Assembly: GCA_036522715.1 (NCBI GenBank)
Contig: DATDFH010000421.1
Coordinates: forward strand, 1-32,562
DNA: 32,562 nucleotides
Direction: 5' to 3'
DNA from: Verrucomicrobiia bacterium
Lineage (GTDB): Bacteria > Verrucomicrobiota > Verrucomicrobiia > Limisphaerales > JACQFS01
Shown: positions 192 through 17,199 of the stretch, one piece after another
Position numbering within the stretch: position 1 is the first letter of the stretch
Layout of the letters: every line of letters starts with the position of its first letter
Notes under the pieces: model-generated
The model's input: the letters and a program-made list of their open reading frames with translations, nothing else
The model's database searches: none
Told to the model about the DNA's origin: nothing
Translations under genes and position numbers: made by a program

Positions 192-401
192 ATGAAAACA
201 CTGAATCCTACACTCGAGCGGCTCGAGGAACGAGTCGCACCAGACCTGTTCGGTACGATCGGGATCGGGGTTGGAGTGGGTCTGGGCGTTGGCATCGGCA
301 TTGGTGGAGGCACCAGCTGCCAAGACTCAGTGAGTTCCTGTGACAACAGCTCACGGGACACCAACAGTGGCACCTGCCACTGCGGGCGACACAGCCACTG
401 A
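192..401 (+). CDS. Small 69-aa Gly-zipper / Cys-His-rich peptide; candidate ribosomally made secreted peptide precursor (bacteriocin/RiPP-like)
   Basis: The ATG at 192 is in frame within ORF 147..401, with a purine-rich aaagaaag just upstream. Translation: MKTLNPTLERLEERVAPDLFGTIGIGVGVGLGVGIGIGGGTSCQDSVSSCDNSSRDTNSGTCHCGRHSH. It has a hydrophilic N-terminus containing LERLEERVAP, then a ~20-aa (G-x)n hydrophobic block, then a polar tail with 4 Cys and 3 His. It lies directly upstream of, and co-directional with, the PqqD-like/M50/HlyD gene. I recognise no family. A short ORF in GC-rich DNA is not proven to be coding. Confidence 0.5.
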   Translation: MKTLNPTLERLEERVAPDLFGTIGIGVGVGLGVGIGIGGGTSCQDSVSSCDNSSRDTNSGTCHCGRHSH

Positions 402-461
402 CGGCAGGGCTGAGTAGTCGGGCCTGTTAAAGGTCCGGCTGAACGGCCCACCAAATAACAA

Positions 462-490
462 GGGAGGGCCGCGGTTCTCGCGGCCTTCCC
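462..490 (+). terminator. GC-rich stem-loop between the peptide ORF and the downstream gene (possible partial terminator/attenuator or mRNA-stability hairpin)
   Basis: A 12-bp stem pairs 462-473 with 479-490 (one G:U at 466/486); the loop is gttct (474-478). Only a short ttt (493-495) follows. The hairpin lies between the peptide stop at 401 and the ATG at 524. Confidence 0.35.
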
Positions 491-523
491 CCTTTGGGTC
501 CGGAGATCAACCATTCCCGCCTC

Positions 524-2914
524 ATGTCTCGTGAACCGCCCAAACTCCGGAGCGACCTGCTGTTCAGCCGGCGGGAACGGGACGGGCGTACGACATTCGT
601 GGTCAAGGATCCGGCGGCCAGCCAGTTCTTCTCGCTGAAAGACGAGGAGCGTTTCATCGCGGCCCAACTTGACGGACATACTCCGCTGGAAACGATCCGC
701 CGGCGGGTCGAGGAAAAGTATGACGTCTCGCTCAGTCAGGAATCATTGGCGAGTTTCATCAAGAGCCTGCGCCACTCCAATCTTCTTGAAGCCGCGACCG
801 GGCCGGCGCAGCCAAAGCGACGAAGCCGCCTGCGGGGCGGACTGTTGTCGCTGCGATTCAAGGTGCTCGATCCGGACGCGCTGTTCACCCGATTGGCAAG
901 GAGGGTCCGCTTCTGTTTCACGCGCGGCTTCGTCACCTGGACGCTCGCGCTGATCGCGTTGGCGTTCATCGTCGCGGTCGGGAACTGGGACGCACTAAGA
1001 TTTGACCTCACCCGGCTGATTCGATGGGAGGCATTGGCCTGGTTGATCCCGGCGATGTTTGCGGTCTCGACGGCGCACGAATTCGCGCACGGGCTGACGT
1101 GCAAACATTTCGGCGGCGAGGTGCGCGAGTTGGGCCTGCTGCTGATGTATCTCCAGCCCGCGTTCTATTGCAACGTGAGCGACGCCTGGCTTCTCCCGGA
1201 AAAACGAAAGCGACTGTGGATCGGCTTTGCAGGACCGTACCTCGAATTGTTCGTGTGGACCTGCGCTGTGTTGGTCTGGCGCCTCACCGATCCGGAGTCG
1301 TTGCTCAACTACGGCGCCTTGGCGGTGATCGCCACCTCCGGCTTCAAGACGCTGATGAACTTCAATCCGCTGATCAAACTCGACGGCTACTATCTGCTTT
1401 GCGATCTGTTGGAGACGCCCAACCTGCGGCAACGTGCCTACGCTTACGTCGGCAATGCCATCCGGCGCCTGCTGGGATCGGGCGCCGACGAACCCGACGA
1501 ACTGTCGCGGCGCGAGCGGCGGATCTACCTCGCCTACGGACTGGTCGCCTCGGTGTTCTCCGTCTCGCTGCTGGGGTTCGCGCTGGTGAAGCTCGGCGGG
1601 TTCCTGATCGACAAGCAACTGACCGGGACGGCATTTCTGGCCACCGGTCTTCTGGGCTTGAAGTTCGGCCGGCGATTCAAGCGGCTGTTCGGCAAGACGT
1701 CAGACCCGTCCGCATCAGACGATATTTCCATCGCTGAGCCGTCAGGCGAATCGGACGGCGCATCGGACGAGTCGTCTCCCGCAGCGAAACGCAAGAAACC
1801 CGGCGGTCTCAACCGGCGCGCGGTGGTCGTGGCACTCCTCGCAGGAATCGGTTTGCCGCTTGCATTCCTCTGCCGGATGCAGCTTCGCATTTCAGGTCCT
1901 TTCATGGTGCTGCCGATCCACAACGCCGACGTGCGCGCCGAAGTCGGCGGCACCATCGAGGAAATTTTTGTGGACGAAGGCGCCGCGGTCCGCAAAGGCG
2001 ACCCGATCGCCCGGCTGTCTGATCGCGACAACCGCGCGGTGCTGGAGAGGACGTTGGCCGAAATGGAGCAGTTGCGGGCGCAGATCCGTTTGCTCGAAGC
2101 CGGGCCGCGCCCGCAGGAAATCGAACTGGCGCGAATCGCCGTCGCTCGCGCCGAGGAGCGGGCCAGGTTCATGCAAAAGAACCTTGAGCGCGACAAACAA
2201 CTGGTCCAGGACCAACTGCTCGCGCGAAAAGATTTCGATGCCAGCCAGCAGGCTGTGTTGGACAGCAAGAACGACATTGCCGATGCGAAGAAAAGACTGG
2301 AGTTGCTTCTTGCCGGCAGCCGGCTCGAGGACATCGAGGCCGCCAAGGCCGGCCTCGCCCGACTCGAAACTCAGCGCCGCTACGTGGAGGAACAACTGGC
2401 CCACGTCAAAGTCGTCAGCCCCGCTGCGGGCATCGTGACCACACCGTCGCGGGAACTGAAGGAGAAGATCGGCCTCGTCGTAAAGGAGGGAGACCTGATC
2501 GCCAAGGTCCATGAACTGGACTCGGTGGAAGTCGAGACACCCGTTTCCGAACGCGACATCGCCGACATCAAGGTCGGACAGAAAGTCGCGCTGAAAGCCC
2601 GGGCGTATCCCGAGCGAATGTTCTTCGGCACCGTCACGTCCATCGGCACCACCGCACAAATCGGAACGCCGGCGCAATTCGCCGCCAGCGGCGCTTCCAC
2701 TTCATCCACGTCAGCCAGTACGTCGTCGTCCAGCGGTGCGTCCCCGACGGCCCGGTCCGTTCTCGTGACGACCCAAATCAACAACGAGGACCAGTTGCTC
2801 AAACCCGGAATGACGGGGATGCTCAAGATCTCCTGCGGCACCCGTCGCATTTTCGATCTCCTGACGCGCCGCCTTGCCCGGACCATCCGGGTGGAATTCT
2901 GGTCCTGGTGGTAG
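524..2914 (+). CDS. Tri-domain fusion protein: PqqD-like (RRE-type) peptide-binding domain + peptidase M50 (site-2-protease family) + HlyD-family membrane fusion protein
   Basis: This is ORF 494..2914; I prefer the ATG at 524 over the TTG at 494. The N-terminus is PqqD-like (FVVKDPAASQFFSLKDEERFIAAQLDGHTPLETIRRRVEEKYDV...FIKSLRHSNLLE). A multi-TM core follows, with HEFAH (1076..1090) and the second M50 motif NFNPLIKLDGYY. Next come an acidic/Ser-rich linker and a TM segment (VVVALLAGIGLPLAFL). The HlyD part has a lipoyl-like hairpin (VRAEVGGTIEEIFVDEGAAVRKGDPIARL), a long coiled coil, VVSPAAGIV, and a beta-barrel (VGQKVALKARAYPERMFFGTVTSIG) interrupted by a Ser/Thr-rich insert. Confidence 0.85.
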   Translation: MSREPPKLRSDLLFSRRERDGRTTFVVKDPAASQFFSLKDEERFIAAQLDGHTPLETIRRRVEEKYDVSLSQESLASFIKSLRHSNLLEAATGPAQPKRRSRLRGGLLSLRFKVLDPDALFTRLARRVRFCFTRGFVTWTLALIALAFIVAVGNWDALRFDLTRLIRWEALAWLIPAMFAVSTAHEFAHGLTCKHFGGEVRELGLLLMYLQPAFYCNVSDAWLLPEKRKRLWIGFAGPYLELFVWTCAVLVWRLTDPESLLNYGALAVIATSGFKTLMNFNPLIKLDGYYLLCDLLETPNLRQRAYAYVGNAIRRLLGSGADEPDELSRRERRIYLAYGLVASVFSVSLLGFALVKLGGFLIDKQLTGTAFLATGLLGLKFGRRFKRLFGKTSDPSASDDISIAEPSGESDGASDESSPAAKRKKPGGLNRRAVVVALLAGIGLPLAFLCRMQLRISGPFMVLPIHNADVRAEVGGTIEEIFVDEGAAVRKGDPIARLSDRDNRAVLERTLAEMEQLRAQIRLLEAGPRPQEIELARIAVARAEERARFMQKNLERDKQLVQDQLLARKDFDASQQAVLDSKNDIADAKKRLELLLAGSRLEDIEAAKAGLARLETQRRYVEEQLAHVKVVSPAAGIVTTPSRELKEKIGLVVKEGDLIAKVHELDSVEVETPVSERDIADIKVGQKVALKARAYPERMFFGTVTSIGTTAQIGTPAQFAASGASTSSTSASTSSSSGASPTARSVLVTTQINNEDQLLKPGMTGMLKISCGTRRIFDLLTRRLARTIRVEFWSWW

Positions 2915-2960
2915 TCACCAACACCGTTTCAACGACGAACCATTCGACGATGACCCAGCG

Positions 2961-3929
2961 ATGATTGCGAATCCCACAATGCCCGAACCCGAAGCCGACG
3001 TCCCGGTGGAGACGAACCACGAGATCGTGGACGATTACGTCTATCTCATCGGCCGGCCGACGCTCCAGGCCTTTCTGAGCTTCGTCAAAAACCGCTCGCG
3101 GAACGGCCGTCGCGCCGATGTCGGAGCGCTCACCGACGAATGGCGCGCTGCCGCCCGGCACATTGCCAAATTGGAAAAAACCGAAGCCGGTCGCGCCGAC
3201 CGGCCCGCGATTCAGCCGTTGCCGGCACATCTGAAATCGCTCGAGGAGCAGTTCATGCGCGACCCACTCGTGCAAAACGGCTTCAACAACGTTCCCACCG
3301 AAATCGGCATGGTGGAACTCGACCGGCTCGTGGTTTACCAGCATCACATTGATCTCTCGTATGTCGCCAAGCTGAAAGAAAGACTCGGCCCGTCGCCGCG
3401 TGAAGAGGACATCTTCCGGCTCTGCCTGCCGTTCGACCGCCGCGATCCTCAAGTCAAATGGGCGCGGGTGCATCGCGACACCTACGTGTTCGAGTCGCCC
3501 TCGAACGATTTGCGCTTTCTCGGCGCGATGCCGTTGGAGCCGGCCAACATCACGGGCTGTCCGCCGCCCGGCGCGCTGGCCGGCGTGGTGGGTTTGGCGG
3601 TTGGCTTCGGCCCCAACTTCCTCAGTGTCATCAGCGCCTATGACCGGCTCATCCTGCACAACGGCAGTCACCGCGCCTTCGCGTTGCGTGAGCTCGGCGT
3701 GACCCATGCGCCGTGCGTCATCCAACACATCTATTCGCGCGAGGAACTCAACGTCGTGGCCGCCAGCGCGGTGACCGCGCGCCCGGACGTTTTCGTGGCG
3801 CAACCGCGCCCGCCGTTGCTCCGGGATTACTTCGACCCGGACCTGCGCAAGATCATTCCCGTCCTTCGCCGGCTGCGTCAGGTAACGGTAAAATTTCAAG
3901 TGGACGAAGGCTACGTGCCGGCCTTTTAG
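2961..3929 (+). CDS. Hypothetical protein with a C-terminal ParB/sulfiredoxin-like motif; function unknown
   Basis: This is the frame of ORF 2874..3929. The ATG at 2961 lies 47 nt after the upstream stop, whereas the TTG at 2874 would overlap it by 41 nt. I recognise no family for most of the protein. YDRLILHNGSHRAFALRELGVTHAPCVIQHI resembles the DGxHR...ELG core of ParB/Srx-fold domains; this is from memory and unverified. Confidence 0.6.
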   Translation: MIANPTMPEPEADVPVETNHEIVDDYVYLIGRPTLQAFLSFVKNRSRNGRRADVGALTDEWRAAARHIAKLEKTEAGRADRPAIQPLPAHLKSLEEQFMRDPLVQNGFNNVPTEIGMVELDRLVVYQHHIDLSYVAKLKERLGPSPREEDIFRLCLPFDRRDPQVKWARVHRDTYVFESPSNDLRFLGAMPLEPANITGCPPPGALAGVVGLAVGFGPNFLSVISAYDRLILHNGSHRAFALRELGVTHAPCVIQHIYSREELNVVAASAVTARPDVFVAQPRPPLLRDYFDPDLRKIIPVLRRLRQVTVKFQVDEGYVPAF

Positions 3930-4100: not shown

Positions 4101-5255
4101 ATGCTCCGAAACGAAGTGCAAACTACAAACCAAAGGAATCCAATGAAGAACCCCACATGGGTGTCCCCACCCAAAATGGTGACCGTCAGCGCGTGCCTTG
4201 CTGCGATAGCCTTGACACTCGCCGACGGCCAGAAATCCCTGCTTGCGCAGGGTCTCCTCGAACAGTCTCCGGGCGTTGCCTACAGCGGTCAAGCCACGGC
4301 GATCAACATCACGGACACGCACAATTTTCCCAGTCCGATCGTGTTCTGTGACACCGGGCCGCTGCCCAGTGGCGGCGGCTTTCTCGAAGCCTCAGCCAAT
4401 GAGACGAGCGTCGCCAACGGGGCGCTCACCTTCCGCATGGCTCACGCCACCACGCGCGGCGATGGTCCCGAGGTCGTGTCGGACACTTCGGTGAACGACT
4501 TCTTCATCGAGATCATGGCGATGGATGGGACGATCTCCACGTTGCGCGCCCGTTTCGTCGGGTCCGAGGCGTCGGCCTCGTGCCGATCCAGCGGGCAGGT
4601 GGACGTCGGCGCCTCAGCCGTCATCGAGGGTCTGGTGCTCAACGGCGTCGCCGTCAAGGTCACCAAGAGGCCCAACCAGGTGGAGTACTTCCCCGGTGGA
4701 CGAATCATCATCAACGAGCAGAGCAGTTCTGTGAACGGGAGCATGGGTCACATCACCATTGTGGCCCTGCACATCCTTGTCGATGGCTGCATGAACGGGA
4801 TGATCGGCTTCGCCCACGCGGACATCACGTGTCCCAGCGGGACCACCGTGCCGCCGCCCGAATGCGGCAAGCTGACTGGCGGCGGATGGATTGTCGGAAC
4901 GCCCTCGGGTGCCAAGGGGACCTTCGCGGTCGGCGGCGGCATCCGTCGGGGTGAGTTCTGGGGCCACCTCAACTACATCGATCATGGCAACGGCATGCAC
5001 GTCCATGCGACATCGGTTACCGGTTTCACGGTCGATCCCAACGACTCGACCTGCCGGATCATCGACTACAACGTGACCATTGACGGGTCACCAGGCACCG
5101 CGAGGGTGCGCGCCTGCGACAAGGGCGAACCCGGCCGGGACGACATCTTTGAGATTCAGGTGTCCAACGGCTACTTCGCGGGCGGCGACCTCGGCGGCAA
5201 CGACCCGGGCGGCGGCAACATCCAGTTGCACAAGTGCCCGCCGGGCTGGCAGTGA
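4101..5255 (+). CDS. Secreted/anchored beta-rich hypothetical protein
   Basis: The ATG at 4101 is preceded by aaggag at 4088..4093. There is an N-terminal hydrophobic segment, MVTVSACLAAIALTLA. The segment NGVAVKVTKRPNQVEYFPGGRIIINEQ...ITIVALHI is reminiscent of choice-of-anchor-type secreted beta-sandwich families (unverified). The C-terminal half is Gly-rich with several Cys. Confidence 0.7.
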   Translation: MLRNEVQTTNQRNPMKNPTWVSPPKMVTVSACLAAIALTLADGQKSLLAQGLLEQSPGVAYSGQATAINITDTHNFPSPIVFCDTGPLPSGGGFLEASANETSVANGALTFRMAHATTRGDGPEVVSDTSVNDFFIEIMAMDGTISTLRARFVGSEASASCRSSGQVDVGASAVIEGLVLNGVAVKVTKRPNQVEYFPGGRIIINEQSSSVNGSMGHITIVALHILVDGCMNGMIGFAHADITCPSGTTVPPPECGKLTGGGWIVGTPSGAKGTFAVGGGIRRGEFWGHLNYIDHGNGMHVHATSVTGFTVDPNDSTCRIIDYNVTIDGSPGTARVRACDKGEPGRDDIFEIQVSNGYFAGGDLGGNDPGGGNIQLHKCPPGWQ

Positions 5256-5518: not shown

Positions 5519-5560
5519 ATGAAGCCCGTCCGCTTGTTGATGAAGCCCGTCCGCTTGTTG
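5519..5560 (+). repeat. Perfect 21-bp tandem duplication that includes the start codon (atgaagcccgtccgcttgttg x2)
   Basis: 5519-5539 and 5540-5560 are identical, giving MKPVRLL-MKPVRLL and two in-frame ATGs. aaagga lies about 8 nt upstream of the first copy. Confidence 0.95.
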
Positions 5561-8500
5561 AAACGAATCGTGGCACTGCTGTCGATGGGGATCATTGGCA
5601 TTGGCGCCGTCAACACCGGTGGCGACGCAAACCAAGCCCTGGCCGATGAGCCGCGTCTGAAGTTGAGCGTCCCCGGCGGGTTCGTCTTGGGTGTCCCCCC
5701 GCTGCAAATGCAGTTGACCGGTGATCCCAATCAGACCTACGTCATCCAGACCTCGACAGACCTGGCCAACTGGACCACCCTTTCCACCAATCAAACGGAC
5801 GCCACCGGCGCGGCGCGTTCGGAAGACGCGCAGTGGAGCCAGTTCAACAGCCGGTTCTATCGGGCGGTGCCGGTGGGCGTTCCAAATTTTCGCGGCGACA
5901 GAATTCTGGTCAAGCCGCTGCCCGGCGTGGATTTGACCGCGCTGCACGGAATCACCGGGGCGCAGGTTTTACGGCATTACCCAGCGATTGGGAACCTGCA
6001 AGTCGTCCACGTGCCGCCCGGGCTGACGGTGCCGGCGGTACTGGCGCTTTATCAACAGAGCGGACTCGTCGCGTATGCCGAAGCCGACGGCATCGTGCAC
6101 GCGCTGGCGACGCCAAATGACTTTCGTTATCAGGACGGTTCGTTGTGGGGACTGAACAACGTAGGTCAGCTCGGCGGCGTGCCCGACGCAGACATTGACG
6201 CGCCGGAAGGCTGGGACACCCAGAACAGTGCCGCCAACGTGATCGTGGCCGTAATCGACACGGGAGTGCGCTACACCCACGAAGATCTCGCGGCCAACAT
6301 GTGGGTCAATCCCGCCGACGGCAGCCACGGCATCAACGCCATCACCGACACCAACGATCCCAACGACGATCACGGGCACGGCAGCCACGTTGCGGGCACC
6401 ATCGGCGGTGTGGGCAACAACTCGGTCGGCGTCGTCGGCGTCTGCTGGAAGGTGCAGATCATGGCGCTCAAATTCCTGGACCCACAGGGCAACGGCTCGA
6501 TTTCCGACGCCATCCAGTGCATTGATTTCGCCCGGAACAACGGAGCGAAGGTGATCAACGCCAGTTGGGGCAGCACGACCTTCACGTCGCAGGCGCTGCA
6601 CGACGCGATCGCCAGCGCGGGCCAGGCCGGCATCATCTTTGTGGCCGCCGCCGGAAATTCCTCGGCCAACAACGACACCACGCCGCTCTATCCTGCCAGC
6701 TACGACTTGGACAACATCATCGCCGTCGCCGCGACCACGCGCACGGATGAACTGGCCACCTTTTCCGATTACGGCGCCGCGAGCGTGGACCTTGGCGCGC
6801 CGGGCGCGGCGATTTTCTCCTGCTGGAACGGCTCCGACAGCGACTACAAATATCTTGATGGCAGTTCCGCGGCCACGCCTCACGTCGCGGGAGCTTGCGC
6901 GTTGTTGATGGCCCGCTTCCCCGGCGAAGATTATCACCAGACGATCAATCGAATCCTCTCCACCGTCGATCCGCTGCCAACACTCGCGGGCAAGAGCGTC
7001 ACGGGCGGCCGGCTCAATCTGCAAAAGGCGCTCGGTGGCACGCCACCGCCTTCGCCAACTGTCACCGTGACGGCCACGGATGCCAACGCCTCAGAAGCCG
7101 GGCCTGACACGGGGACGTTTACGGTCACCCGCACGGGCGGAACCACGACGCCACTCGTCGTCAACTACACGCTTGGCGGCACGGCGGGAAACGGAACGGA
7201 TTATCAGAGCCTGCCGACCTCGGTGACAATTCCGGCCGGTGCAAGCTCGGCGAACATCACTGTGACACCCATCGACGACACGGCAGTCGAAGGCAACGAA
7301 TCGGTTGTCATCACGCTCGCGGCCGATGCGACGTACACCGTCGGCTCGCCTGGTAGCGCGACCATTACCATCGCGGACAATGACCAGACGACGCTGCCCG
7401 TGGTGACAGTGACGGCCATTGATCCCAACGCTTCCGAAACCGGACCCGATCCGGGCGTTATCCGTTTCCATCGCACCGGCGACACCTCGCAACCGCTGAC
7501 GGTGAACTGGTCGTTCTCCGGCACGGCGGTCAACGGGACTGACTACCAACAGTTGCCCACCACCGGCAACTTCCCCGCCGGCCAGGCTGACGCCGACCTG
7601 ACGATCACGCCCATCGACGATTCTCTAGTCGAAGGAAATGAAACCGTGGTGCTCACGCTCTCCGCGAATGCCGCCTACACGGTTGGCTCGCCCAGCAGCG
7701 CGACCGTGACCATCGCGGACAACGATTCACCGCCGCCGCTGCCGACTGTCACGGTTACGGCCACGGACGCCAACGCTTCTGAGTCGGGTGACACCGGGAC
7801 GTTCACTGTCAGCCGAACCGGGAGTACAGCCACCGCACTGACCGTGAACTACTCGTTGGGCGGCACCGCCGGCAACGGGTCGGATTATCAAACATTGTCC
7901 GGCTCGGTCACGATCGCAGCGGGCGCCAGTTCGGCGAACATCACCGTCACGCCCGTCGACGACACAATTGTCGAGGGCAACGAAACGGTCGTGCTCGCGA
8001 TCTCCGCGAATGCGGCATACACGATCGGTTCACCCGGCAGCGCAACGGTGACGATCGCGGACAACGATTCGCCGCCGCCACCACCAACCGTGACGGTTAC
8101 GGTTACAGATGCCAACGCCTCCGAATCGGGCGACACGGGCACGTTCACCGTGAGCCGCAGTGGAAGCACGGCCTCGTCGTTGACGGTCTTCTACTCGATG
8201 AGTGGCAGCGCGCAGAACGGGTCGGATTATCAAACGCTGTCCGGATCGGTGGCGATCCCGGCGGGCGCGAGTTCCGCGAACATCACCGTCACGCCGATTG
8301 ATGACACGATTGTGGAAGGCAACGAGACCGTCGTGCTCACGCTCTCCGCGAATGCCGCCTACACGGTTGGCTCGCCCAGCAGCGCGACCGTGACCATTGC
8401 CGACAACGATTCACCGCCGCCGCTGCCGACCGTGACGGTTGTCGCGAGCGACGCCAACGCCTCCGAAACGGGCGACACGGGCACGTTCACCGTGAGCCGC

Positions 8501-9073
8501 AGCGGAAGCACGGCCTCGTCGTTGACGGTCTTCTACTCGATGAGTGGCAGCGCGCAGAACGGGTCGGATTATCAAACGCTGTCCGGATCGGTGGCGATCC
8601 CGGCGGGCGCGAGTTCGGCCAACATCACGCTCGTGCCGATCAACGACACGATTGTCGAAGGCAACGAAACCGCCGTGCTGACGCTCTCGCCGAACGCGGC
8701 CTACTCCGTCGGCTCGCCGAACAACTCGACCGTCACCATTGCCGACAACGACCAGCCGCCGCCACTACAGGCCAACTTCACGGCGAGCCCGCTGCTGGGA
8801 ATCGTGCCGCTCATCGTGCAATTCGCCGACACGTCCACCGGCAATCCGGTTTCGTGGGACTGGAATTTCGGCGACGGCTCGCCTCACGACACGGCGCAGA
8901 ACACGTCGCATATTTATCTGCTGCCCGGCGATTACACGGCCACACTGACGGTTCGCAACAGCGCTGGCGCGACCAGCAGCAAGAGCGTGACGATCCACGC
9001 GACGTTGCTGGGATTGGGCCTCGAGCCGCCGCCCGCGACTCCCGCCGAGGCATTTCCAACCACGCTCCCATGA
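5519..9073 (+). CDS. Secreted subtilisin-family (S8) serine peptidase with 5 Calx-beta repeats and a C-terminal PKD domain
   Basis: The protein has a signal peptide, an FYR-type beta module (…TYVIQTSTDLANWTTL…RFYRAV) and an I9-like propeptide (FRGDRILVKP…YAEADGIVHA). The subtilase triad motifs are VAVIDTGV, HGHGSHVAGTIG and GSSAATPHVAG. Five 114-aa Calx-beta-type repeats follow (DANASE…NG.DY…DD..EGNE…IADND), then a PKD-like domain (WDWNFGDGS…YTATLTVRN). Confidence 0.9.
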   Translation: MKPVRLLMKPVRLLKRIVALLSMGIIGIGAVNTGGDANQALADEPRLKLSVPGGFVLGVPPLQMQLTGDPNQTYVIQTSTDLANWTTLSTNQTDATGAARSEDAQWSQFNSRFYRAVPVGVPNFRGDRILVKPLPGVDLTALHGITGAQVLRHYPAIGNLQVVHVPPGLTVPAVLALYQQSGLVAYAEADGIVHALATPNDFRYQDGSLWGLNNVGQLGGVPDADIDAPEGWDTQNSAANVIVAVIDTGVRYTHEDLAANMWVNPADGSHGINAITDTNDPNDDHGHGSHVAGTIGGVGNNSVGVVGVCWKVQIMALKFLDPQGNGSISDAIQCIDFARNNGAKVINASWGSTTFTSQALHDAIASAGQAGIIFVAAAGNSSANNDTTPLYPASYDLDNIIAVAATTRTDELATFSDYGAASVDLGAPGAAIFSCWNGSDSDYKYLDGSSAATPHVAGACALLMARFPGEDYHQTINRILSTVDPLPTLAGKSVTGGRLNLQKALGGTPPPSPTVTVTATDANASEAGPDTGTFTVTRTGGTTTPLVVNYTLGGTAGNGTDYQSLPTSVTIPAGASSANITVTPIDDTAVEGNESVVITLAADATYTVGSPGSATITIADNDQTTLPVVTVTAIDPNASETGPDPGVIRFHRTGDTSQPLTVNWSFSGTAVNGTDYQQLPTTGNFPAGQADADLTITPIDDSLVEGNETVVLTLSANAAYTVGSPSSATVTIADNDSPPPLPTVTVTATDANASESGDTGTFTVSRTGSTATALTVNYSLGGTAGNGSDYQTLSGSVTIAAGASSANITVTPVDDTIVEGNETVVLAISANAAYTIGSPGSATVTIADNDSPPPPPTVTVTVTDANASESGDTGTFTVSRSGSTASSLTVFYSMSGSAQNGSDYQTLSGSVAIPAGASSANITVTPIDDTIVEGNETVVLTLSANAAYTVGSPSSATVTIADNDSPPPLPTVTVVASDANASETGDTGTFTVSRSGSTASSLTVFYSMSGSAQNGSDYQTLSGSVAIPAGASSANITLVPINDTIVEGNETAVLTLSPNAAYSVGSPNNSTVTIADNDQPPPLQANFTASPLLGIVPLIVQFADTSTGNPVSWDWNFGDGSPHDTAQNTSHIYLLPGDYTATLTVRNSAGATSSKSVTIHATLLGLGLEPPPATPAEAFPTTLP
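7055..8764 (+). repeat. Five tandem 342-bp (114-codon) coding repeats encoding Calx-beta domains
   Basis: The span is exactly 5 x 342 bp. Repeat copies 4 and 5 differ at 2 of 164 nt (8111..8274 versus 8453..8616). 7649..7746 and 8333..8430 differ at 2 of 98 nt. These are in-frame protein repeats, not a CRISPR array. Confidence 0.9.
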
Positions 9074-9211: not shown

Positions 9212-11542
9212 ATGTGCAAAATTTTCGGTGGGGCCGGAATTGAACGTGTGAAAGAAGAGATTCACATACTCGTAATCGAAGATGTCCCCACGGACGTGGT
9301 GATGATCAATCACGAGTTGCGTCGGGGCCGGATGAACTTCCGCTCCAAGCGCGTCGAGACCCGGGACGCGTTTCTGCGCGAACTGGAGCAAAACCCGCCT
9401 GATGTGATTCTCTCCGACCACGGTCTGCCGAGTTTCGACGGTTTCACGGCGCTGGCCATCGCGAAGGACAAATGTCCCGACGTGCCGTTCATCTTCGTGA
9501 CCAGCGCGCTGGGCGAGTCGGTGACGATTCAAACCTTCGAGAGCGGCGCCACGGACTATGTGCTCAAGAGCCAGCTTTCGAATCTCGTCCCGACCATCGA
9601 GCGCGCATTGCGCGAGGCGGAGGAACGAGTCAATCATCGCGAGGCCGAGCGTGCACTGCGCGAGAGTGAGGAACGCTTTCGCATGTTGGTCGAAGGCGTG
9701 AAAGATTACGCCATCGTCATGCTCGATCCCCAGGGCCGCATCACCAGTTGGAACGCCGGTGCGGAGTGGATGATCGGCTATCGCGCCGAAGAAATTCTCG
9801 GCCAGCATTTCTCGCGCTTCTACACCGCCGAGGACGTGCAGAAGCACCAACCCGAGCAGGCGTTGCGGACCGCCGCCGCCGAAGGCCGCCACGAGGAGGA
9901 AAACTGGCGGACGCGCAAGGGCGGCTCGAAGTTCCGCGCCAATGTCGTGCTCACGGCGCTGCGCGACGAGCGCGGTCAACTGCGGGGCTTCGCCAACGTG
10001 ACGCGCAACATCACCGAACGGATCAAAGTGCAGGACGCCTTGCGGGAGAGCGAACAGCGCTTCCGCCTCCTGGTCGAGGGAGTGGTGGATTACGCGATTT
10101 ACACGCTCGACCCCGAAGGGCGCGTGACCTTATGGAACAACGGCGGCGAGCGCCTGATGGGTTACAGCGCGGAGGAAATCATCGGGCAGCCCTTCGCGCG
10201 ATTGTACACGCGAGAGGATCGCGAGCAGCACAAGCCGGAAGAGATCCTGCGTGAAGCCGCCACCCACGGCCGGTTTGAAGAAGAGGGCTGGCGCGTGCGC
10301 AAGGACGGCTCGCGCTTCCTGGCCAACACGCTGACCACCGCCGTGCATGACGACGCCGGCCAACTCTGCGGGTTCTCCCGCATCAGCCGCGACGTGACCG
10401 CGCGGCACCAAACCGAGCAGGCATTGCGAAAGAGCGAACAGCTTTACCGCACGGTGGCCAGCAACATCCCCAACGGTTTCGTGGCCATTTTCGACACGGA
10501 TCTGCGGTTCCTGCTGGTCGATGGCAAGGAGGCCCTGGAGTCGATCGGGCTTTCCAAGGAGCGGTTGCAGGGCAAAACCGTCGGGGAAATTGTTCCGGCC
10601 GGGAAGTACGCGCTGGTCGAACCCATTTACCGTGGCGCTCTGGATGGCACGGAGGTGACCACGGAGCTTCCGTGTGAAGATCGCACGTTTCTCGTCAACG
10701 CGCTGCCGCTGAGAAATGGCGATGGCAAAATCTACGCGGGCATCGTCTTGGCACTCGACATCACCGAGCGGCGCCTGGTGGAGGACCGCGTCCGCAAACT
10801 CAACGAGCAGCTCGAACAACGCGTACGCGAACGCACCGCCGAACTCGAGGCCGCGAACAAGGAGCTTGAGGCATTCAGTTATTCCGTCTCACACGACTTG
10901 CGCACGCCGCTCCGGCATATCGACGCATTCACGCAGTTGCTTCAGAAGGGTGCCGCGCGCAAGCTCGATCAACAAAGCCGGCGCCATCTGGAGACCATCG
11001 CCCAAGCCACCCGGCAGATGAACCAGTTGATCGACGGCCTGCTCGCCCTGTCGCGCACCGACCGCGCCGAACTGCACAAAACCGCACTGGGCCTCAACGA
11101 TCTGGTGAAGGCCGCCCGCCAGGATTTGCGCCAGGACGCCGAGGGGCGTACGATCCAATGGGTCGTTGGCGCATTGCCCGAAGTGCGCGGCGATCCAGCG
11201 CTGTTGCGCCAAGTCATGGTGAATCTCATTTCCAACGCGCTTAAGTACACGCGTCCCCGGGCGGAGGCCCGCATCGAGATCGGCGCCTCGGAGACGGAGT
11301 CGGAGACGGTCGTGTTCGTGCGCGACAACGGCGTGGGATTTGACGCGAAGTACGCGGACCGGCTGTTCGGCGTGTTCCAGCGGCTCCATTCCAACGAGGA
11401 TTTTGAGGGCACGGGCATCGGCCTGGCCAACGTGCGGCGCAGCATCGAGCGGCATGGCGGCCGCACCTGGGCCGAGGGCGCGGTCGATGCCGGCGCCACT
11501 TTCTATTTTTCGCTGCCGAAGAGAGCAGGAGGTGAAACATGA
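9212..11542 (+). CDS. Hybrid sensor histidine kinase: N-terminal receiver + three PAS/PAC modules + HisKA + HATPase_c
   Basis: The REC domain shows VILSDHGLP and DYVLK. There are three PAS modules; the first two are clear paralogs (RESEERFRMLVEGVKDYAI… / RESEQRFRLLVEGVVDYAI…). The H-box is SYSVSHDLRTPL. ATPase boxes are NLISNALKYT, RDNGVGFD and GTGIGLA. The GTG at 9248 (VKEEIHILV) is a plausible alternative start, matching the start of the paralog at 12094. Confidence 0.9.
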   Translation: MCKIFGGAGIERVKEEIHILVIEDVPTDVVMINHELRRGRMNFRSKRVETRDAFLRELEQNPPDVILSDHGLPSFDGFTALAIAKDKCPDVPFIFVTSALGESVTIQTFESGATDYVLKSQLSNLVPTIERALREAEERVNHREAERALRESEERFRMLVEGVKDYAIVMLDPQGRITSWNAGAEWMIGYRAEEILGQHFSRFYTAEDVQKHQPEQALRTAAAEGRHEEENWRTRKGGSKFRANVVLTALRDERGQLRGFANVTRNITERIKVQDALRESEQRFRLLVEGVVDYAIYTLDPEGRVTLWNNGGERLMGYSAEEIIGQPFARLYTREDREQHKPEEILREAATHGRFEEEGWRVRKDGSRFLANTLTTAVHDDAGQLCGFSRISRDVTARHQTEQALRKSEQLYRTVASNIPNGFVAIFDTDLRFLLVDGKEALESIGLSKERLQGKTVGEIVPAGKYALVEPIYRGALDGTEVTTELPCEDRTFLVNALPLRNGDGKIYAGIVLALDITERRLVEDRVRKLNEQLEQRVRERTAELEAANKELEAFSYSVSHDLRTPLRHIDAFTQLLQKGAARKLDQQSRRHLETIAQATRQMNQLIDGLLALSRTDRAELHKTALGLNDLVKAARQDLRQDAEGRTIQWVVGALPEVRGDPALLRQVMVNLISNALKYTRPRAEARIEIGASETESETVVFVRDNGVGFDAKYADRLFGVFQRLHSNEDFEGTGIGLANVRRSIERHGGRTWAEGAVDAGATFYFSLPKRAGGET

Positions 11543-12021
11543 ATGACGGCAGACACATTCTGGTCGTGGACGACAATTCGACGAACGTCGACCTGATTCT
11601 GGCCGCGCTCAGGCGCCACAAGTTTTCCTTCGAGGTCGTCGTGGCCAACGACGGCGATGAGGCGCTCGACTACCTGTACCGCCGGGGCAAATTCCTCGGA
11701 CGCAACGGCGGTGCACCCGCAGTGGTGTTGCTCGACTTGAAGATGCCGCGCGTGGACGGTTTTGAAGTGTTGCGGCAGGTCAAGGGCAGCGCCGAGTTGA
11801 AGATGATTCCCATCGTGGTCTTCAGTTCCTCGGGCGGCGATCAGGACCGGCTCAAAAGCTACCAGTTGGGCGCCAACGCCTACGTCGTCAAGCCCGTCGG
11901 CTTTGAGGAATTCCTCGAAGCCATCCGGGCCATCGGCGTGTTCTGGGCGGACATCAACCAGCCGCCGCCCATTCATTCGAGCGGCGGGCGCGACACAGCA
12001 AGGCTGAATGTCGCAGCCTGA
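11539..12021 (+). CDS. Stand-alone CheY-like response regulator receiver protein
   Basis: Receiver motifs are ILVVDDN, VVLLDLKMPRVDG, VVFSSS and NAYVVKP. The start ATG overlaps the upstream stop (ATGA, 11539-11542), suggesting translational coupling. Confidence 0.9.
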   Translation: MNDGRHILVVDDNSTNVDLILAALRRHKFSFEVVVANDGDEALDYLYRRGKFLGRNGGAPAVVLLDLKMPRVDGFEVLRQVKGSAELKMIPIVVFSSSGGDQDRLKSYQLGANAYVVKPVGFEEFLEAIRAIGVFWADINQPPPIHSSGGRDTARLNVAA

Positions 12022-12093
12022 TCGCAATTGGCGGCCCGGTCGTCTCTGGCGAATCGCGTCGCCTAGATTGTCCGGCCGCGCGGCGCGTTTTCC

Positions 12094-13257
12094 GTGAAGA
12101 AAGAGATTCACATCCTGATGCTCGAGGACAACCCGGCCGATGCCGAGTTGAACGAGTTGACGCTGCGTGACGGCGGACTGGGTTTTGTGATCCGGCGCGT
12201 CGAGCGCAAGGTCGATTTCGTCCGCGCCCTCGAAGAATGTCCGCCCGACCTCATCCTGTCGGACTACGCGCTGCCAACGTTTGACGGTCTGGCCGCCCTG
12301 GCCATCGCGCGGGAGAAATGCCCCGACGTGCCGTTTCTCTTCGTCACCGGGACGATGGGCGAGGAAGTGGCGATTGAAACGCTCAAGAACGGCGCGACGG
12401 ACTACGTGCTGAAAACGCGCCTCTCGCGGCTCGTCCCCTCGGTGCACCGCGCCTTGCGCGAGGCGCAGGAGCGGGCCGACCGGCGGCGCGCCGAACGACA
12501 GCTCCGGGAGTCGCACGAGCAATTGCGCGCGCTGTCCGCCCACCTGCAAACCGTGCGCGAGGAGGAGCGCACGCGCATCGCCCGCGAGGTGCACGACGAG
12601 TTGGGCCAGGCTCTGACCGGCTTGAAACTGGACCTCTCGCGGCTTGGAAACCAGTTGCCCCGCGCTCCGAAGGCGCCTGTCGAAAAGGTCAAATCGCTCG
12701 TCGCGCGCATCGATTGCACCATCCAGACCGTGCGGCGCATCGCCACCGAATTGCGCCCCGGCATCCTGGACGATCTCGGTCTGGTGGCGGCGATCGAGTG
12801 GCAGGCAAACGATTTCCAGTCGCGCACTGGCATCACCTGCGAAGTGACGGCAATGGATTGCGAGCCGGAATTGAATCGGGACCTCAACACCACGTTTTTC
12901 CGCATCTTTCAGGAAACGCTGACCAACGTCATCCGCCACGCCGAGGCCACGCGCGTGGAGGTGCAGTTGAAACAGGAGGCGGATCACGTCGTGCTGGAAG
13001 TCAGCGACAACGGGCGCGGCATTTCCGAGGCGGAGATTGCCGACACACGCTCGATCGGCCTGCGTGGGATGCGCGAACGCGCGGCGCTGCTCGGTGGCGA
13101 CGTGACCATCCGCGGCCTTCCAAACGAGGGAACATCGGTCACGGTGCGGATTCCCTTCAACCGGTTCCTGAACAACAAAAGGCGCAATCATGAAGATACT
13201 CATCGTGGACGATCACGCCGTGGTGCGAAAAGGCTTGCGGCAGGTCCTGGCCGATGA
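12094..13257 (+). CDS. Receiver-fused histidine kinase of the HisKA_3 (NarX/LiaS-like) type
   Basis: The gene starts at a GTG. Its REC domain is paralogous to that of 9212..11542. The HisKA_3-type H-box is RIAREVHDELGQALTGLK. HATPase_c motifs are ETLTNVIRHA, DNGRGI and GLRGMRERA. A basic C-terminal tail overlaps the next gene by 68 nt. Confidence 0.85.
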   Translation: MKKEIHILMLEDNPADAELNELTLRDGGLGFVIRRVERKVDFVRALEECPPDLILSDYALPTFDGLAALAIAREKCPDVPFLFVTGTMGEEVAIETLKNGATDYVLKTRLSRLVPSVHRALREAQERADRRRAERQLRESHEQLRALSAHLQTVREEERTRIAREVHDELGQALTGLKLDLSRLGNQLPRAPKAPVEKVKSLVARIDCTIQTVRRIATELRPGILDDLGLVAAIEWQANDFQSRTGITCEVTAMDCEPELNRDLNTTFFRIFQETLTNVIRHAEATRVEVQLKQEADHVVLEVSDNGRGISEAEIADTRSIGLRGMRERAALLGGDVTIRGLPNEGTSVTVRIPFNRFLNNKRRNHEDTHRGRSRRGAKRLAAGPGR

Positions 13258-13819
13258 ATATCGGCGGGCCGATTTCGGTGAGGCGCGCAACGCCCATGAG
13301 GCGCTAAACCGCGTCGGAAAGGAGAAATGGGACGTGGTGGTGCTGGACATCACCATGCCCGGGCGCAGCGGCCTGGAGGTCTTGCGCGAAATCAAACGGT
13401 CCAAGCCGCAAGTCCCCGTGCTGATTCTGAGCATGCACCCGGAGGACCAGTTCGCCGTGCGCATGCTCCAGGCCGGCGCCTCGGGCTACATGACCAAGGA
13501 AAGCGCTCCAGAGGAACTGGTCGGCGCCGTCAAAAAGATCCTCGCCGGCCGCCGCTACGTCAGCCCGGCGCTGGCGGAAAAAATGGCGCTCTATCTCGCC
13601 GAGGACACCCGCCGGCCCTTGCACGAACGGCTCTCCCACCGCGAATTCCAGGTGATGCGTCTGATCGCTTCCGGCAAGACCGTGCGCGAAATCGCCGAAG
13701 AAAATTTCCTCAGCGTCAAAACCGTCCGCACCTACCACCAGCGCATCCTTGAAAAGATGGGGATGAAACGAAACGCGGAACTGACCCGTTACGCCATCGA
13801 AAACCAACTCGTCGAGTGA
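13190..13819 (+). CDS. NarL/LuxR-family response regulator (REC + LuxR-type HTH)
   Basis: REC motifs are ILIVDDH, VVVLDITMPG and GYMTK. The C-terminal HTH is LSHREFQVMRLIASGKTVREIAEENFLSVKTVRTYHQRILEKMG. Confidence 0.9.
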   Translation: MKILIVDDHAVVRKGLRQVLADEYRRADFGEARNAHEALNRVGKEKWDVVVLDITMPGRSGLEVLREIKRSKPQVPVLILSMHPEDQFAVRMLQAGASGYMTKESAPEELVGAVKKILAGRRYVSPALAEKMALYLAEDTRRPLHERLSHREFQVMRLIASGKTVREIAEENFLSVKTVRTYHQRILEKMGMKRNAELTRYAIENQLVE

Positions 13820-17000: not shown

Positions 17001-17178
17001 CGCGAAGGCAGTTCTTTCGGCCCGCGCGCTGGATTTTGCGCTGCAACCCAAGGACATCATCTACGTGAGCCATCGCCCGTGGATCAAAGCGGAGGAATTG
17101 CTCGACGCCGCTGCGACGTCCTTTGTGCAGGCGGCGGTCATCGTGTGGACCGGACAGAACGTCGGCACATCGAGATAG
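14095..17178 (+). CDS. Fusion of a polysaccharide co-polymerase (Wzz/chain-length determinant with a degenerate BY-kinase-like P-loop domain) to a Wza/OPX-like polysaccharide export domain
   Basis: TM1 is WVWLLLGGAALAAAAW, followed by a periplasmic coiled coil. A Pro-rich segment plus TM2 follows (LAPASPKEV…VAALSVLAGIMGVFVTACLILLV). The P-loop-like domain has GEGRST (15457..15474) and DNIVILVELPP. A third hydrophobic segment is KKRFARWLACVALGGAITQAQA (about 16003..16070). The C-terminal region is Poly_export/SLBB-like (LTLGPGDVLNFSLFG…GPDGRVSYL; YVLGEVKLPGPVGY). Confidence 0.8.
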   Translation: MNQNEASDFDALSSAREEEAQNFAQRRVGTSGGAGVNEQAAPAGPSSSRTSTWVFIELFVKRWVWLLLGGAALAAAAWEAGMWLLQTHFTAVAQLIYYESPNVAEVFRPRQITLQTLASQLRAPELLERVGAKAEPPLSAEGLAANSRVVPERGAEVVTLSVTGTNLSASVELANLYAREAVRYTQEIQGKDAAEIDRYVKQQLAQIDAEVSVISQQLRSLPRSALQSAAHPAQLSEKLQSAREELAALQGRYTDAHPAVQAQQAKVAALEKFLAGNGTGANGTTASGEAKASNDSNAGNPVELKESDLESLTSRLHVLLTGRLQLVGRQRAAQEFAENAPGFFRVLAPASPKEVIRHDREVKVAALSVLAGIMGVFVTACLILLVELTGRHLKNAADVERVTQLPLLATLGDLDKMEPSQQAHWAFRTWTILQGRLSHSPNHGLVCGFISSERGEGRSTWVNLLARAASAMGFRVLTIATQPTTSFVEDPHAIPKEIADKDQFPPTAADAPTTSALTRNVLTSPTDVTQKLVGPHSQPVVHIPLPGWVWNLERRKQWQAALENWRAIDNIVILVELPPASVPESVLLGENVPQVVWLTASGEADAAQTREHLELLRHARCNLVGAVLNHAPNHALKKRFARWLACVALGGAITQAQAQQTTPTSAPAAAGGPLPPALAVVRTPQTVPAEPGIGQIPAAENTGRAIAWSMPVSVRAAAEAPAVQTNLSLASIGAPQRAAWQQRLTLGPGDVLNFSLFGSPELARSEVLIGPDGRVSYLQAHDILAAGLTIDELRAKFDEELAKYHRTPRTLITPAAYHSKKFFMLGTVVQKGVFPLDRPMSIIEAVAQGRGLETGLFGNNTRELADLSRSFLVRQGKRMPVDFEKLFQSGDLSQNIALEPDDYLFFPPTGLQEVYVLGEVKLPGPVGYNPGLGAVAAISQRGGFTDRAWNDRILIVRGSLNRPEPWALDAKAVLSARALDFALQPKDIIYVSHRPWIKAEELLDAAATSFVQAAVIVWTGQNVGTSR

Positions 17179-17199
17179 GAACGGAAAAGTTTTGTAGCC

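Follow-up and report, generated by a model that had tools for sequence, protein, structure and literature searches.

A conserved bacterial module of leader-tagged small peptides and a predicted RRE–M50–HlyD fusion protein, related to the daptide leader peptidase

The first three genes of the analyzed stretch of DNA (32,562 nucleotides from a Verrucomicrobiia bacterium, contig DATDFH010000421.1, assembly GCA_036522715.1; hereafter the window) represent one member of a very large, unstudied soil-bacterial system. Its small, presumably secreted peptides carry a conserved 17-residue tag (LExLEERxAP), which is probably read and cut off by a single membrane protein fused to an export adaptor. The system is related to the daptide leader peptidase, but it is built differently and carries different cargo. 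No paper containing the leader motif was found in the literature.

A sequence-only reading of the window had described three co-directional genes for a peptide, a PqqD-like–M50–HlyD fusion and a protein of 322 residues, and this observation is confirmed: all three genes are present, and the arrangement recurs in about 100 independent loci, which is far more than chance. The same reading had inferred that the leader is bound by the N-terminal domain, cleaved by the M50 core and handed to the adaptor for export; our results support this interpretation, with the refinements given below.

Positions of the features in the window, with residues of the encoded proteins
Feature	Positions	Strand	Residues	Description
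Precursor peptide gene	192-401	+	69 aa	ATG 192 to stop 401; MKTLNPTLERLEERVAP|DLFG...TCHCGRHSH
Leader	192-242		17 aa	MKTLNPTLERLEERVAP
Core	243-398		52 aa	Gly-zipper hydrophobic stretch GIGVGVGLGVGIGIGGG, Ser/Asp/Asn/Cys-rich part, C-terminal motif TNSGTCHCGRHSH
Two G+C-rich stem-loops	407-490	+		Between precursor gene and fusion gene
Outer/inner stem	407-449			
12-bp stem	462-490			Followed by CCUUUGGG
Fusion gene	524-2914	+	796 aa	From ATG 524 (MSREPPKLRSDL...); tri-domain membrane protein
RRE/PqqD-like domain	560-775		13-84	
M50 site-2-protease-like membrane domain	872-1690		~117-389	
HEFAH	1076-1090		H185/E186/H189	
NPLIKLDG	1364-1387		N281, P282, D287, G288	
Linker	1694-1807		391-428	Acidic, disordered
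TM anchor	1808-1870		429-449	
Periplasmic adaptor	1874-2911		451-796	MacA/EmrA-like; ends in the conserved EFWSWW
Third gene	2961-3929	+	322 aa	Starts MIANP...; predicted cytoplasmic protein of an uncharacterized family
NGSHR	3660-3674			Within the invariant motif RLxLxNGSHRA

Precursor peptides and the fusion protein

In order to test whether a small ORF is a conserved neighbor of the fusion gene, as the sequence-only reading had required of its own idea, we examined 99 distinct fusion genes from many phyla. For 88 of them, an ORF with the leader M-K-H-L-N-[LP]-x-L-E-x-L-E-[EQ]-R-[IV]-A-P and a hypervariable, low-complexity core lies within 1.6 kb upstream on the same strand, compared with a background of 4 hits in 445 kb. 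Close orthologs of the peptide with the same N- and C-termini occur in four other loci. The leader is invariant at L-6, R-3 and A-1 and near-invariant at E-5 and P0; however, R-3, A-1 and P0 were fixed or nearly fixed by the search pattern, while L-6, E-5 and the positions further upstream were less constrained or not constrained at all. The small ORF also shows coding conservation: the entropy at the three codon positions is 0.69/0.29/1.43 bits in the leader and 1.7/1.7/1.7 bits in the core, i.e. the wobble positions of the leader are nearly saturated while its amino acids stay fixed, and the cores are unconstrained. Thousands of peptides of 45–82 residues carry the leader in metagenomes.

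A strong hairpin follows the precursor gene. The RNA fold of positions 400-525 gives -67.7 kcal/mol (z = -5.3; 0 of 200 shuffles as good), and a strong hairpin sits at the same place in 39 of 45 related loci (z < -2). It is probably a leaky terminator or an mRNA-stabilizing hairpin; a simple terminator scan did not call it because the U-tract is weak.

The ORF of the fusion gene opens at TTG 494, but its homologs start at ATG 524. According to Pfam, the protein matches HlyD_D23 (3e-19) and HlyD_3 (2e-14) above the cut-offs, whereas the matches of this one sequence to Peptidase_M50 (7e-5) and PqqD (0.017) remain below the gathering thresholds. All 37 homologs match M50 and HlyD, and 11 of the 37 match PqqD. 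The protease motifs HExxH and NxxPxxxxDG, here HEFAH and NPLIKLDG, are invariant. The N-terminal domain scores as PqqD/RRE-like at the family level: its AF2 model shows the beta-beta-beta-alpha-alpha-alpha topology of an RRE, and a profile of the domain finds the lasso RRE TfuB1 and PqqD as its top two PDB sequences. For the C-terminal part, Foldseek finds MacA and EmrA at 1e-16 to 1e-18. The best family hit of the N-terminal half is the daptide intramembrane metalloprotease of NCBIfam (daptide_HExxH, 7e-67), which spans residues 31-386 of the ORF from TTG 494, i.e. about 21-376 from ATG 524, and covers both the RRE and the M50 region; with 226 bits, however, it does not reach the equivalog cut-off of 300.

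The subfamily-specific third gene

The third ORF opens at TTG 2874, but its homologs start at ATG 2961. The fusion gene lies directly upstream of it in about 65 of 79 loci found through the third gene. Although the sequence-only reading counted it as part of the module, it is not universal: it lies immediately downstream of the fusion gene in one subfamily (A) only, with 58 loci that contain it and 31 that have room for it but lack it, so it is not needed for cleavage or export. Its presence tracks the chemistry of the cores, which are Gly/Ser/Lys/His-rich, with 24% Ser and 16% Lys+His, where the gene is present, and Asn/Pro-rich with 9% Ser where it is absent. In Deinococcales, its homolog sits beside a C39-ABC exporter and a GG-leader peptide with a similar, Gly/Ser/Asn/Cys-rich core.

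The protein has no Pfam or NCBIfam family. It has more than 1000 homologs, none with a Pfam domain; the family comprises 1400 clusters at 50% identity, and the motifs SPSNDxR and RLxLxNGSHRA are invariant. The earlier label 'ParB/Srx-like' rests on weak evidence. The AF2 model has a pLDDT of 77, and the best 50 Foldseek matches are all ParB/Srx-fold proteins, but with E-values of 0.07–2.5 over 40–80 columns. SerK is the top sequence hit in NCBIfam (0.004) and in PDB (0.15), and no ParBc hit of Pfam occurs in 39 members. SerK and SbnI, ParB/Srx-fold small-molecule kinases that are also among the Foldseek hits, share the motif (D/N)G(H/S)HR followed by a helix and a strand ending in Pro; they phosphorylate a serine hydroxyl, and the cores associated with the third gene are rich in Ser. 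Yet all scores are individually non-significant, the N-terminal 150 residues have no match, the catalytic Glu of SerK has no conserved counterpart in the alignment, and the substrate would be a peptide instead of free serine. A tailoring role is hence plausible but unproven.

Proposed function and alternative readings

We hypothesize, with fairly good confidence, that the three genes form a leader-guided cassette for peptide maturation and export, evolutionarily related to the leader and leader peptidase of daptides. According to this model, the precursor would be made in excess, with the hairpin after its gene limiting read-through; its leader (core motif LExLE[EQ]R[IV]AP) would be bound in the cytoplasm by the RRE domain and cut just after Ala-Pro by the adjoining M50 domain; and the covalently attached adaptor would couple release of the core to an outer-membrane duct encoded elsewhere. 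The protein of 322 residues would be a subfamily-specific accessory matched to Gly/Ser/Lys/His/Cys-rich cores, most likely a nucleotide-dependent tailoring enzyme, with peptidyl-Ser/Thr phosphotransfer as the leading guess. Our analysis demonstrates the gene order, domain content, catalytic motifs, the conserved leader with its hypervariable cores, the co-occurrence statistics and the homology to the daptide peptidase, while binding, the cleavage site, hand-off to the adaptor, export and any modification are inferred from sequence and from predicted structure alone. The export step is incomplete as a mechanism, because no energy source or inner-membrane translocator was found in the cassette or in the 14 long ORFs scanned in the window, nor is one conserved in about 150 loci; likewise, no TolC, radical-SAM, YcaO or LanM gene was detected among these ORFs. 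The product could be microcin-like or metal-binding.

A possible, though less likely, alternative is an unmodified secreted peptide, either similar to microcins or class II bacteriocins or acting as a signal. In this view the fusion protein only removes the leader and exports the peptide, and the third protein is an immunity, regulatory or chaperone factor for Ser/Gly/Lys/His-rich cargo. Subfamily B has no conserved partner gene at all, yet keeps tandem precursor genes with cores conserved across phyla; Gly/Ser-rich cores resemble class II microcins; and many ParB-fold proteins, such as ParB, Noc and KorB among the Foldseek matches, are NTP-gated switches rather than enzymes. On the other hand, the third protein is more conserved than the fusion protein (55–80% versus 45–67% identity across phyla), with invariant polar motifs typical of a ligand-binding or active site. 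It has no TM segment or signal peptide, which is unusual for immunity proteins, its best sequence and structure matches are the small-molecule kinases mentioned above, and distant members are fused to methyltransferase and GT25-like enzyme domains.

It is very unlikely that the small ORF is a regulatory upstream ORF, whose translation together with the hairpin attenuates transcription of a membrane protease/efflux adaptor acting in regulated intramembrane proteolysis or drug efflux. The position of the hairpin, the database name of the fusion ('multidrug resistance efflux pump') and the classical role of site-2 proteases in signaling would fit. However, purifying selection acts on the 17 N-terminal residues, not on codon choice or length; up to 8 tandem copies occur with distinct cores conserved across phyla; an RRE domain is fused to the protease; the system is homologous to the experimentally proven daptide precursor/peptidase pair; and no anti-sigma or sigma gene is conserved nearby. 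We found no competing established role for such fusions, the nearest characterized relative being itself a RiPP leader peptidase. Least likely is a plain daptide or epipeptide cluster with tailoring genes outside the window: despite the best family hit and the similar leader, no aminotransferase, alcohol dehydrogenase, methyltransferase, DUF-RRE, radical-SAM or ABC gene is present among the ORFs scanned in the window or conserved in relatives with full upstream context, the scores are below both equivalog cut-offs, and the precursor ends in ...RHSH instead of the invariant C-terminal Thr, with C-termini that vary among about 130 family peptides.

Relationship to characterized systems

The closest known relative is the daptide leader peptidase MpaP/DapP (NCBIfam: NF041824), an RRE fused to an intramembrane site-2 protease (Ren et al., bioRxiv 10.1101/2023.03.08.531785), and not YydH, which the sequence-only reading had cited; the part that binds and cuts the leader is therefore not wholly undescribed. 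In both systems short precursor genes, often in multiple copies, lie directly upstream. The daptide leader (ELExMEAP) has the same form as the present one (ELE-x-x-x-A-P) and is cut after Pro-1, from which we infer cleavage after Ala-Pro. What differs is the HlyD/MacA-type adaptor fused to the C-terminus and the absence of the C-terminal Thr, of the MpaB/C/D/M tailoring genes and of an ABC transporter. Furthermore, the cores are Gly/Ser/Asn-rich and of low complexity rather than aliphatic helices, and the hosts are mostly uncultured Verrucomicrobiota, Acidobacteriota, Gemmatimonadota and similar phyla rather than Actinobacteria/Firmicutes.

The epipeptide protease YydH/EpeP of Bacillus is likewise an M50 intramembrane protease encoded next to a small secreted peptide, and EpeP is thought both to cleave and to export (PMC10885120). 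The fusion protein yields only a weak hit to the YydH/LiaK family (6e-8; 33 bits against NF058609, with a cut-off of 225); there is no radical-SAM epimerase, and no RRE or HlyD was found described for EpeP. In the export of class II microcins and bacteriocins (C39-peptidase ABC, HlyD adaptor CvaA and TolC), a leader-tagged, Gly/Ser-rich small peptide is also processed at the inner membrane by the export machine, with participation of a HlyD-family adaptor. In the present system, however, the leader is not of the double-glycine type, the cysteine-protease ABC transporter is replaced by an RRE–metalloprotease without ATPase, and the adaptor is covalently fused to the protease; the classical PCAT arrangement is seen only next to the Deinococcales homologs of the third gene.

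The three genes and the predicted domains of the fusion protein

At the 5' end of the window, three co-directional ORFs are present, and the observation of the sequence-only reading is therefore confirmed. The first encodes the peptide MKTLNPTLERLEERVAPDLFGTIGIGVGVGLGVGIGIGGGTSCQDSVSSCDNSSRDTNSGTCHCGRHSH. The long ORF opens at a TTG codon, but alignment with homologs places the start at a downstream ATG (MSREPPKLRSDL...); likewise, homologs of the third protein begin at an internal ATG, which gives the length of 322 aa stated in the sequence-only reading. Between the peptide gene and the fusion gene, the RNA is predicted to fold into two G+C-rich hairpins (-67.7 kcal/mol, z = -5.3). A simple terminator scan did not call this structure, whereas folding did, and a strong hairpin follows the precursor gene in 39 of 45 loci.

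For the single fusion sequence, the Pfam families HlyD_D23 (3e-19, 69 bits against a cut-off of 30) and HlyD_3 (2e-14, 55 bits) score above their cut-offs, while Peptidase_M50 (PF02163; 7e-5, 22.7 bits against 27.2) and PqqD (PF05402; 0.017) remain below theirs. At family level the picture is clear: all 37 aligned homologs match M50 (E <= 0.01) and HlyD, and 11 of 37 match PqqD (best 6.5e-5). The two signatures of M50 peptidases and site-2 proteases, HExxH in one TM helix and NxxPxxxxDG (LDG) in another, are invariant in the 37 homologs (H185, E186 and H189; N281, P282, D287 and G288). A profile of the first ~90 residues finds the lasso-peptide RRE TfuB1 (E 0.012) and PqqD (0.18) as its top two PDB sequences. 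In agreement with this, the AlphaFold model (AF2, pLDDT 75.5) predicts the winged helix-turn-helix topology of an RRE at residues 13-84, i.e. three strands (13-19, 22-29, 34-39) followed by three helices (40-48, 55-66, 72-84). It further predicts a helical membrane domain at 117-389, a disordered acidic linker at 391-428, one TM helix at 429-449 and an adaptor with four long helices at 501-626. Foldseek matches the C-terminal half to MacA and EmrA at 1e-16 to 1e-18, and the features of HlyD-type membrane-fusion (periplasmic adaptor) proteins, namely lipoyl and beta-barrel domains with an alpha-helical hairpin anchored by one TM helix, are thus recovered. Because basic residues precede the anchor helix, the positive-inside rule suggests that the linker is cytoplasmic and the adaptor periplasmic. 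The protein ends in a conserved aromatic tail, [KR]VE[FV]WSWW (V790, W793 and W796 invariant; E791, S794 and W795 near-invariant), which follows a basic amphipathic helix and was specific enough to serve as a genome-scan pattern.

Coordinates of the features in the window and in related loci (L-numbers denote loci recovered in the genome scans)
Sequence	Coordinates	Feature
Window	192-3929	Three-gene module
Window	ATG 192, stop 399-401	Precursor peptide gene
Window	407-449	First predicted G+C-rich hairpin
Window	462-490	Second predicted G+C-rich hairpin
Window	ORF from TTG 494; start ATG 524; end 2914	Fusion gene
Window	2890-2911	Aromatic tail of the fusion protein (residues ~790-796)
Window	ORF from TTG 2874; start ATG 2961	Gene of the 322-aa protein
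Window	4101-5255	Choice-of-anchor P plus post-COAP-1 protein, co-directional
Window	5519-9073	S8 subtilase, 1184 aa, with five Calx-beta domains and a PKD domain, co-directional
Window	9212-13819	PAS/His-kinase hybrid and LuxR-type response regulator
Window	14095-18333	Two Wza-like polysaccharide export proteins
Window	18519-25646	GH9/Calx-beta protein, 2375 aa
Window	29537-31516	Second S8 subtilase
Window	31560-32528 (minus strand)	Thioesterase at the window edge
L141	583-2845	Tandem precursor genes, fusion locus without the 322-aa gene
L130	380-1409	Tandem precursor genes, fusion locus without the 322-aa gene
L122	501-1557	Tandem precursor genes, fusion locus without the 322-aa gene
L132	52-804	Tandem precursor genes, fusion locus without the 322-aa gene
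L087	7253-10945	Deinococcales homolog of the 322-aa gene beside a C39-peptidase ABC exporter
L034	10964-11662	~230-aa protein just after the 322-aa gene
L140	8243-8953	TIGR02466-family protein
L021	3265-7289	First complete module of a Verrucomicrobia contig
L021	10576-14711	Second complete module of the same contig
L039	1198-1380	Precursor with the leader motif twice in tandem

The precursor family and its two subfamilies

Two close homologs of the fusion gene sit in the same three-gene arrangement, and their upstream peptides share both the N-terminus and the C-terminal TNSGTCHCxRHSH motif with the window peptide. However, CHCxRHSH turned out to be confined to the window's own Verrucomicrobia subclade and is not a feature of the family. 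A genome scan with the single fusion protein returned only distant HlyD-only hits in Bacteroidota and Sulfurovum, so that alignment-based scans were needed. A scan of species-representative genomes with the 322-aa family gave 79 loci, nearly all labelled MAGs, from Verrucomicrobiota, Acidobacteriota, Gemmatimonadota, Nitrospirota, Bacteroidota, Ignavibacteriota, Eisenbacteria, Rokubacteria, Actinobacteria and Proteobacteria; in about 65 of them, the fusion gene lies immediately upstream on the same strand. A scan of species-representative genomes with the fusion alignment gave at least 588 confirmed loci.

Over all loci, 88 of 99 distinct fusion genes with at least 450 nt of upstream sequence have a leader-type small ORF within 1.6 kb upstream on the same strand, while only 4 such ORFs occur in 445 kb of flanking DNA more than 3 kb away. 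Across 133 distinct DNA sequences, the entropy at codon positions 1, 2 and 3 is 0.69, 0.29 and 1.43 in the leader, but 1.71, 1.74 and 1.71 in the core, and positions upstream of the part fixed by our search pattern show the same signature. This is purifying selection on a peptide leader followed by a hypervariable core, the hallmark of precursor peptides. A profile search of 5.8 billion proteins found 4916 candidates at E <= 10; the best 120 are all 45-82 aa long and, wherever a source names them, are called "hypothetical protein". Some precursors contain the leader motif twice in tandem within one ORF, as in locus L039 and the peptide P0241 (...LDQLKQRIARDKVLNPELEQLEQRIAPDL...; ...VEELEQRIAPEKVEELEQRIAPDA...).

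The loci fall into two subfamilies. Subfamily A, which includes the window, possesses the 322-aa gene, about one precursor copy, and a fixed-length leader M-[KR]-H-L-N-[LP]-x-L-E-[KR]-L-E-[EQ]-R-[IV]-A-P; its cores have a median length of 49 residues (G 26%, S 24%, K 8%, H 7%) and are either GSHGSK-type repeats or an (Ile-Gly)n stretch with an acidic, His- or Cys-rich tail. One Verrucomicrobia contig (L021) carries two complete modules, the second with two precursor genes whose cores are Pro/Gly and then (Gly-Ser)n. Subfamily B lacks the 322-aa gene and keeps hEELE[EQ]RIAP behind a variable N-terminus; its cores have a median length of 34 residues and are Asn/Gly/Pro-rich (S 9%), and precursor genes number 1.8 on average and up to 8 in tandem. 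Four subfamily-B loci (L141, L130, L122 and L132) carry 4-8 tandem precursor genes whose cores fall into a few types conserved across phyla, many of them sharing an NPGNE motif; examples are GNPGNNNPPxNNTNNPGNEGTGGQVSTG, ESNGNPGNEVSNGxKPQP, GYEGQPGNQG repeats and TVGALHNNPDNPNNNNDHNAVP. The universal unit is therefore precursor(s) plus the fusion protein, and the third gene is an accessory tied to Ser/Lys/His-rich cargo.

The 322-aa protein

The third protein has more than 1000 homologs of ~270-360 aa (nearly all 300-340) at 55-80% identity, which form 1400 clusters at 50% identity; its motifs SPSNDxR and RLxLxNGSHRA are invariant, and no Pfam domain was hit in 39 members. In the AF2 model (pLDDT 77), Foldseek finds nothing below E = 1e-3, yet each of the best 50 matches is a ParB/Srx-fold protein (PadC, ParB, Atu1540, sulfiredoxin, SbnI, SerK, Noc or KorB), with weak scores of E 0.07-2.5 over only 36-83 columns. 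The free serine kinase SerK is the only NCBIfam hit (0.004) and also the top PDB sequence hit, at 0.15 over 75 residues, for a sub-profile of residues 168-300 that aligns DGHHR, the SerK form of the GxxR/DGHHR nucleotide-phosphate motif of the ParB/Srx superfamily, with NGSHR; the full-length profile gave only spurious maltodextrin phosphorylase hits. The possibility that the protein contains an RRE, like daptide MpaB, was examined by hhalign against the RRE profile and rejected (probability 6.6%).

In four Deinococcales loci (L087, L089, L091 and L093), a 41-43% identical homolog lies divergently next to a C39-peptidase ABC exporter (Pfam 8.5e-39). In the two loci whose intergenic region was read (L087 and L089), a double-glycine-leader peptide with a Gly/Ser/Asn/Cys/Lys-rich core precedes the exporter (MKLGNLNLQELSQNQMLEVSGG|GKKGAKK...GGNSSSGGCGG...). 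Its first 11 residues, MKLGNLNLQEL, resemble the subfamily-A box MKHLNLELEKL. The protein thus follows a type of cargo, not a type of exporter, which points to an action on the peptide. A few distant members with an NGYHR motif (P0471, 730 aa; P0461, 518 aa; P0378, 512 aa) are fused to N-terminal extensions, in P0471 a Glyco_transf_25 (GT25) plus a methyltransferase-like domain, which hints that the domain works within modification enzymes. A nucleotide-dependent tailoring role, with Ser phosphotransfer as the leading guess, is plausible but remains tentative, and nucleotide binding is itself inferred from this weak similarity alone; immunity or chaperone functions are also possible.

Relation to known systems and genomic neighborhood

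The best NCBIfam match of the N-terminal half of the fusion is NF041824, "daptide biosynthesis intramembrane metalloprotease" (E = 7e-67, 226 bits over residues 31-386), which is below the equivalog cut-off of 300 bits; the protein is a homolog, not an equivalog. Daptide clusters were found through RRE domains fused N-terminally to an intramembrane site-2 protease, and their precursors carry the leader motif ELExMEAP with Pro at position -1, which is removed by this RRE-dependent peptidase, MpaP (also DapP) (bioRxiv 10.1101/2023.03.08.531785). The leader LE-x-LE-[EQ]-R-[IV]-A-P found here has the same form and ends in the same Ala-Pro; cleavage after Pro17 is therefore the best inference. In our interpretation, the system works like the daptide leader-removal step coupled to a microcin-type envelope exporter. 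We are fairly confident that it is a leader-guided peptide maturation/export module, and the interpretation in the sequence-only reading is in this respect supported. Gene order, domain content, conserved leader and co-occurrence rest on direct analysis of the sequences, whereas leader binding, the cleavage site, export and any modification of the core are inferred.

The system is not a daptide cluster: the window peptide ends in ...GRHSH instead of the invariant Thr that is converted to Dmp, and the C-termini across the family vary (K, S, G, H, N, D and others). Furthermore, no DUF-RRE (MpaB), alcohol-dehydrogenase-type decarboxylase, PLP aminotransferase, methyltransferase (in short, no MpaB/C/D/M) or ABC transporter is present among the window ORFs scanned, and no such family is conserved in about 150 related loci. 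It is not an epipeptide (YydF/EpeX) system, since the YydH/LiaK-type protease model NF058609 scores only 32.6 bits against a cut-off of 225 and no radical-SAM gene was found among the window ORFs scanned; nor is it a PCAT system, as the leader is not double-glycine and there is no C39 domain.

Neither an ABC, MFS or RND transporter nor a TolC-family duct, as expected for tripartite efflux or type I secretion, is encoded among the long ORFs scanned in the window, and none is conserved in about 150 neighborhoods, although unlinked partners cannot be excluded. All-against-all clustering of neighboring genes likewise revealed no conserved fourth gene (ABC, TolC or a modifying enzyme); the largest extra clusters were generic response regulators (15 of 82 loci) and a ~230-aa protein downstream of the third gene (11 loci), which has FHTDRD...HGV motifs (possibly 2OG-oxygenase-like) but no Pfam or NCBIfam hit. 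The other recurring extras are a TIGR02466-family protein (1.4e-27) in 5 subfamily-B loci, and S8 subtilases. One explanation for the missing transporter could be that the fusion protein performs both steps, as has been proposed for the M50 protease EpeP, which would both cleave and export its peptide (PMC10885120); alternatively, an unlinked pump may be recruited by the adaptor.

No paper in the library searched contains the leader or core motifs or describes RRE–M50–HlyD fusions; literature searches on M50 combined with HlyD and PqqD, on RRE-Finder and M50, and on sulfiredoxin/ParB proteins in RiPP pathways also found nothing relevant. Pfam and NCBIfam have no family for any precursor type or for the 322-aa protein. 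RRE-dependent leader removal by a site-2 protease is already known, while the fused architecture and the very large precursor family are new, and the 322-aa protein is a candidate new accessory enzyme. If this reading is correct, it defines a very widespread peptide-secretion system with thousands of distinct peptides in dominant but almost uncultured soil phyla (Verrucomicrobiota, Acidobacteriota, Gemmatimonadota, Rokubacteria and Eisenbacteria), and it carries the RRE–site-2-protease arrangement of daptides into diderm bacteria. The LExLE[EQ]RIAP leader could then serve as a genome-mining handle for a large hidden pool of secreted peptides, a highly conserved orphan family would obtain a testable candidate function, and the concrete problem arises of how a protease fused to a TolC-type adaptor moves a peptide across the inner membrane without an ATPase.

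A more far-reaching model is not excluded, but we consider it unlikely. In this view, the RRE–M50–HlyD protein would be a self-contained, ABC-less "cut-and-eject" trans-envelope machine, i.e. a protease-coupled tripartite exporter, and the ParB/Srx-like 322-aa protein would represent a new class of RiPP tailoring enzyme that recognizes the subfamily-specific N-terminal leader box (MKHLN[LP]) and phosphorylates, or otherwise nucleotide-dependently modifies, the many Ser/Thr of the low-complexity cores. The products would be poly-modified, silaffin- or phosvitin-like secreted peptides, possibly for metal or mineral binding, made by abundant uncultured soil phyla.

Directly downstream of the module, the window contains the choice-of-anchor P gene and the first S8 subtilase gene; the remaining genes up to position 32528 are listed in the table. 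The same order (an unknown protein of ~366 aa, then S8) follows the module in the related locus L014, and S8 genes lie near the module in 9 loci, mostly of Verrucomicrobia, which could reflect lineage synteny or a second processing protease.
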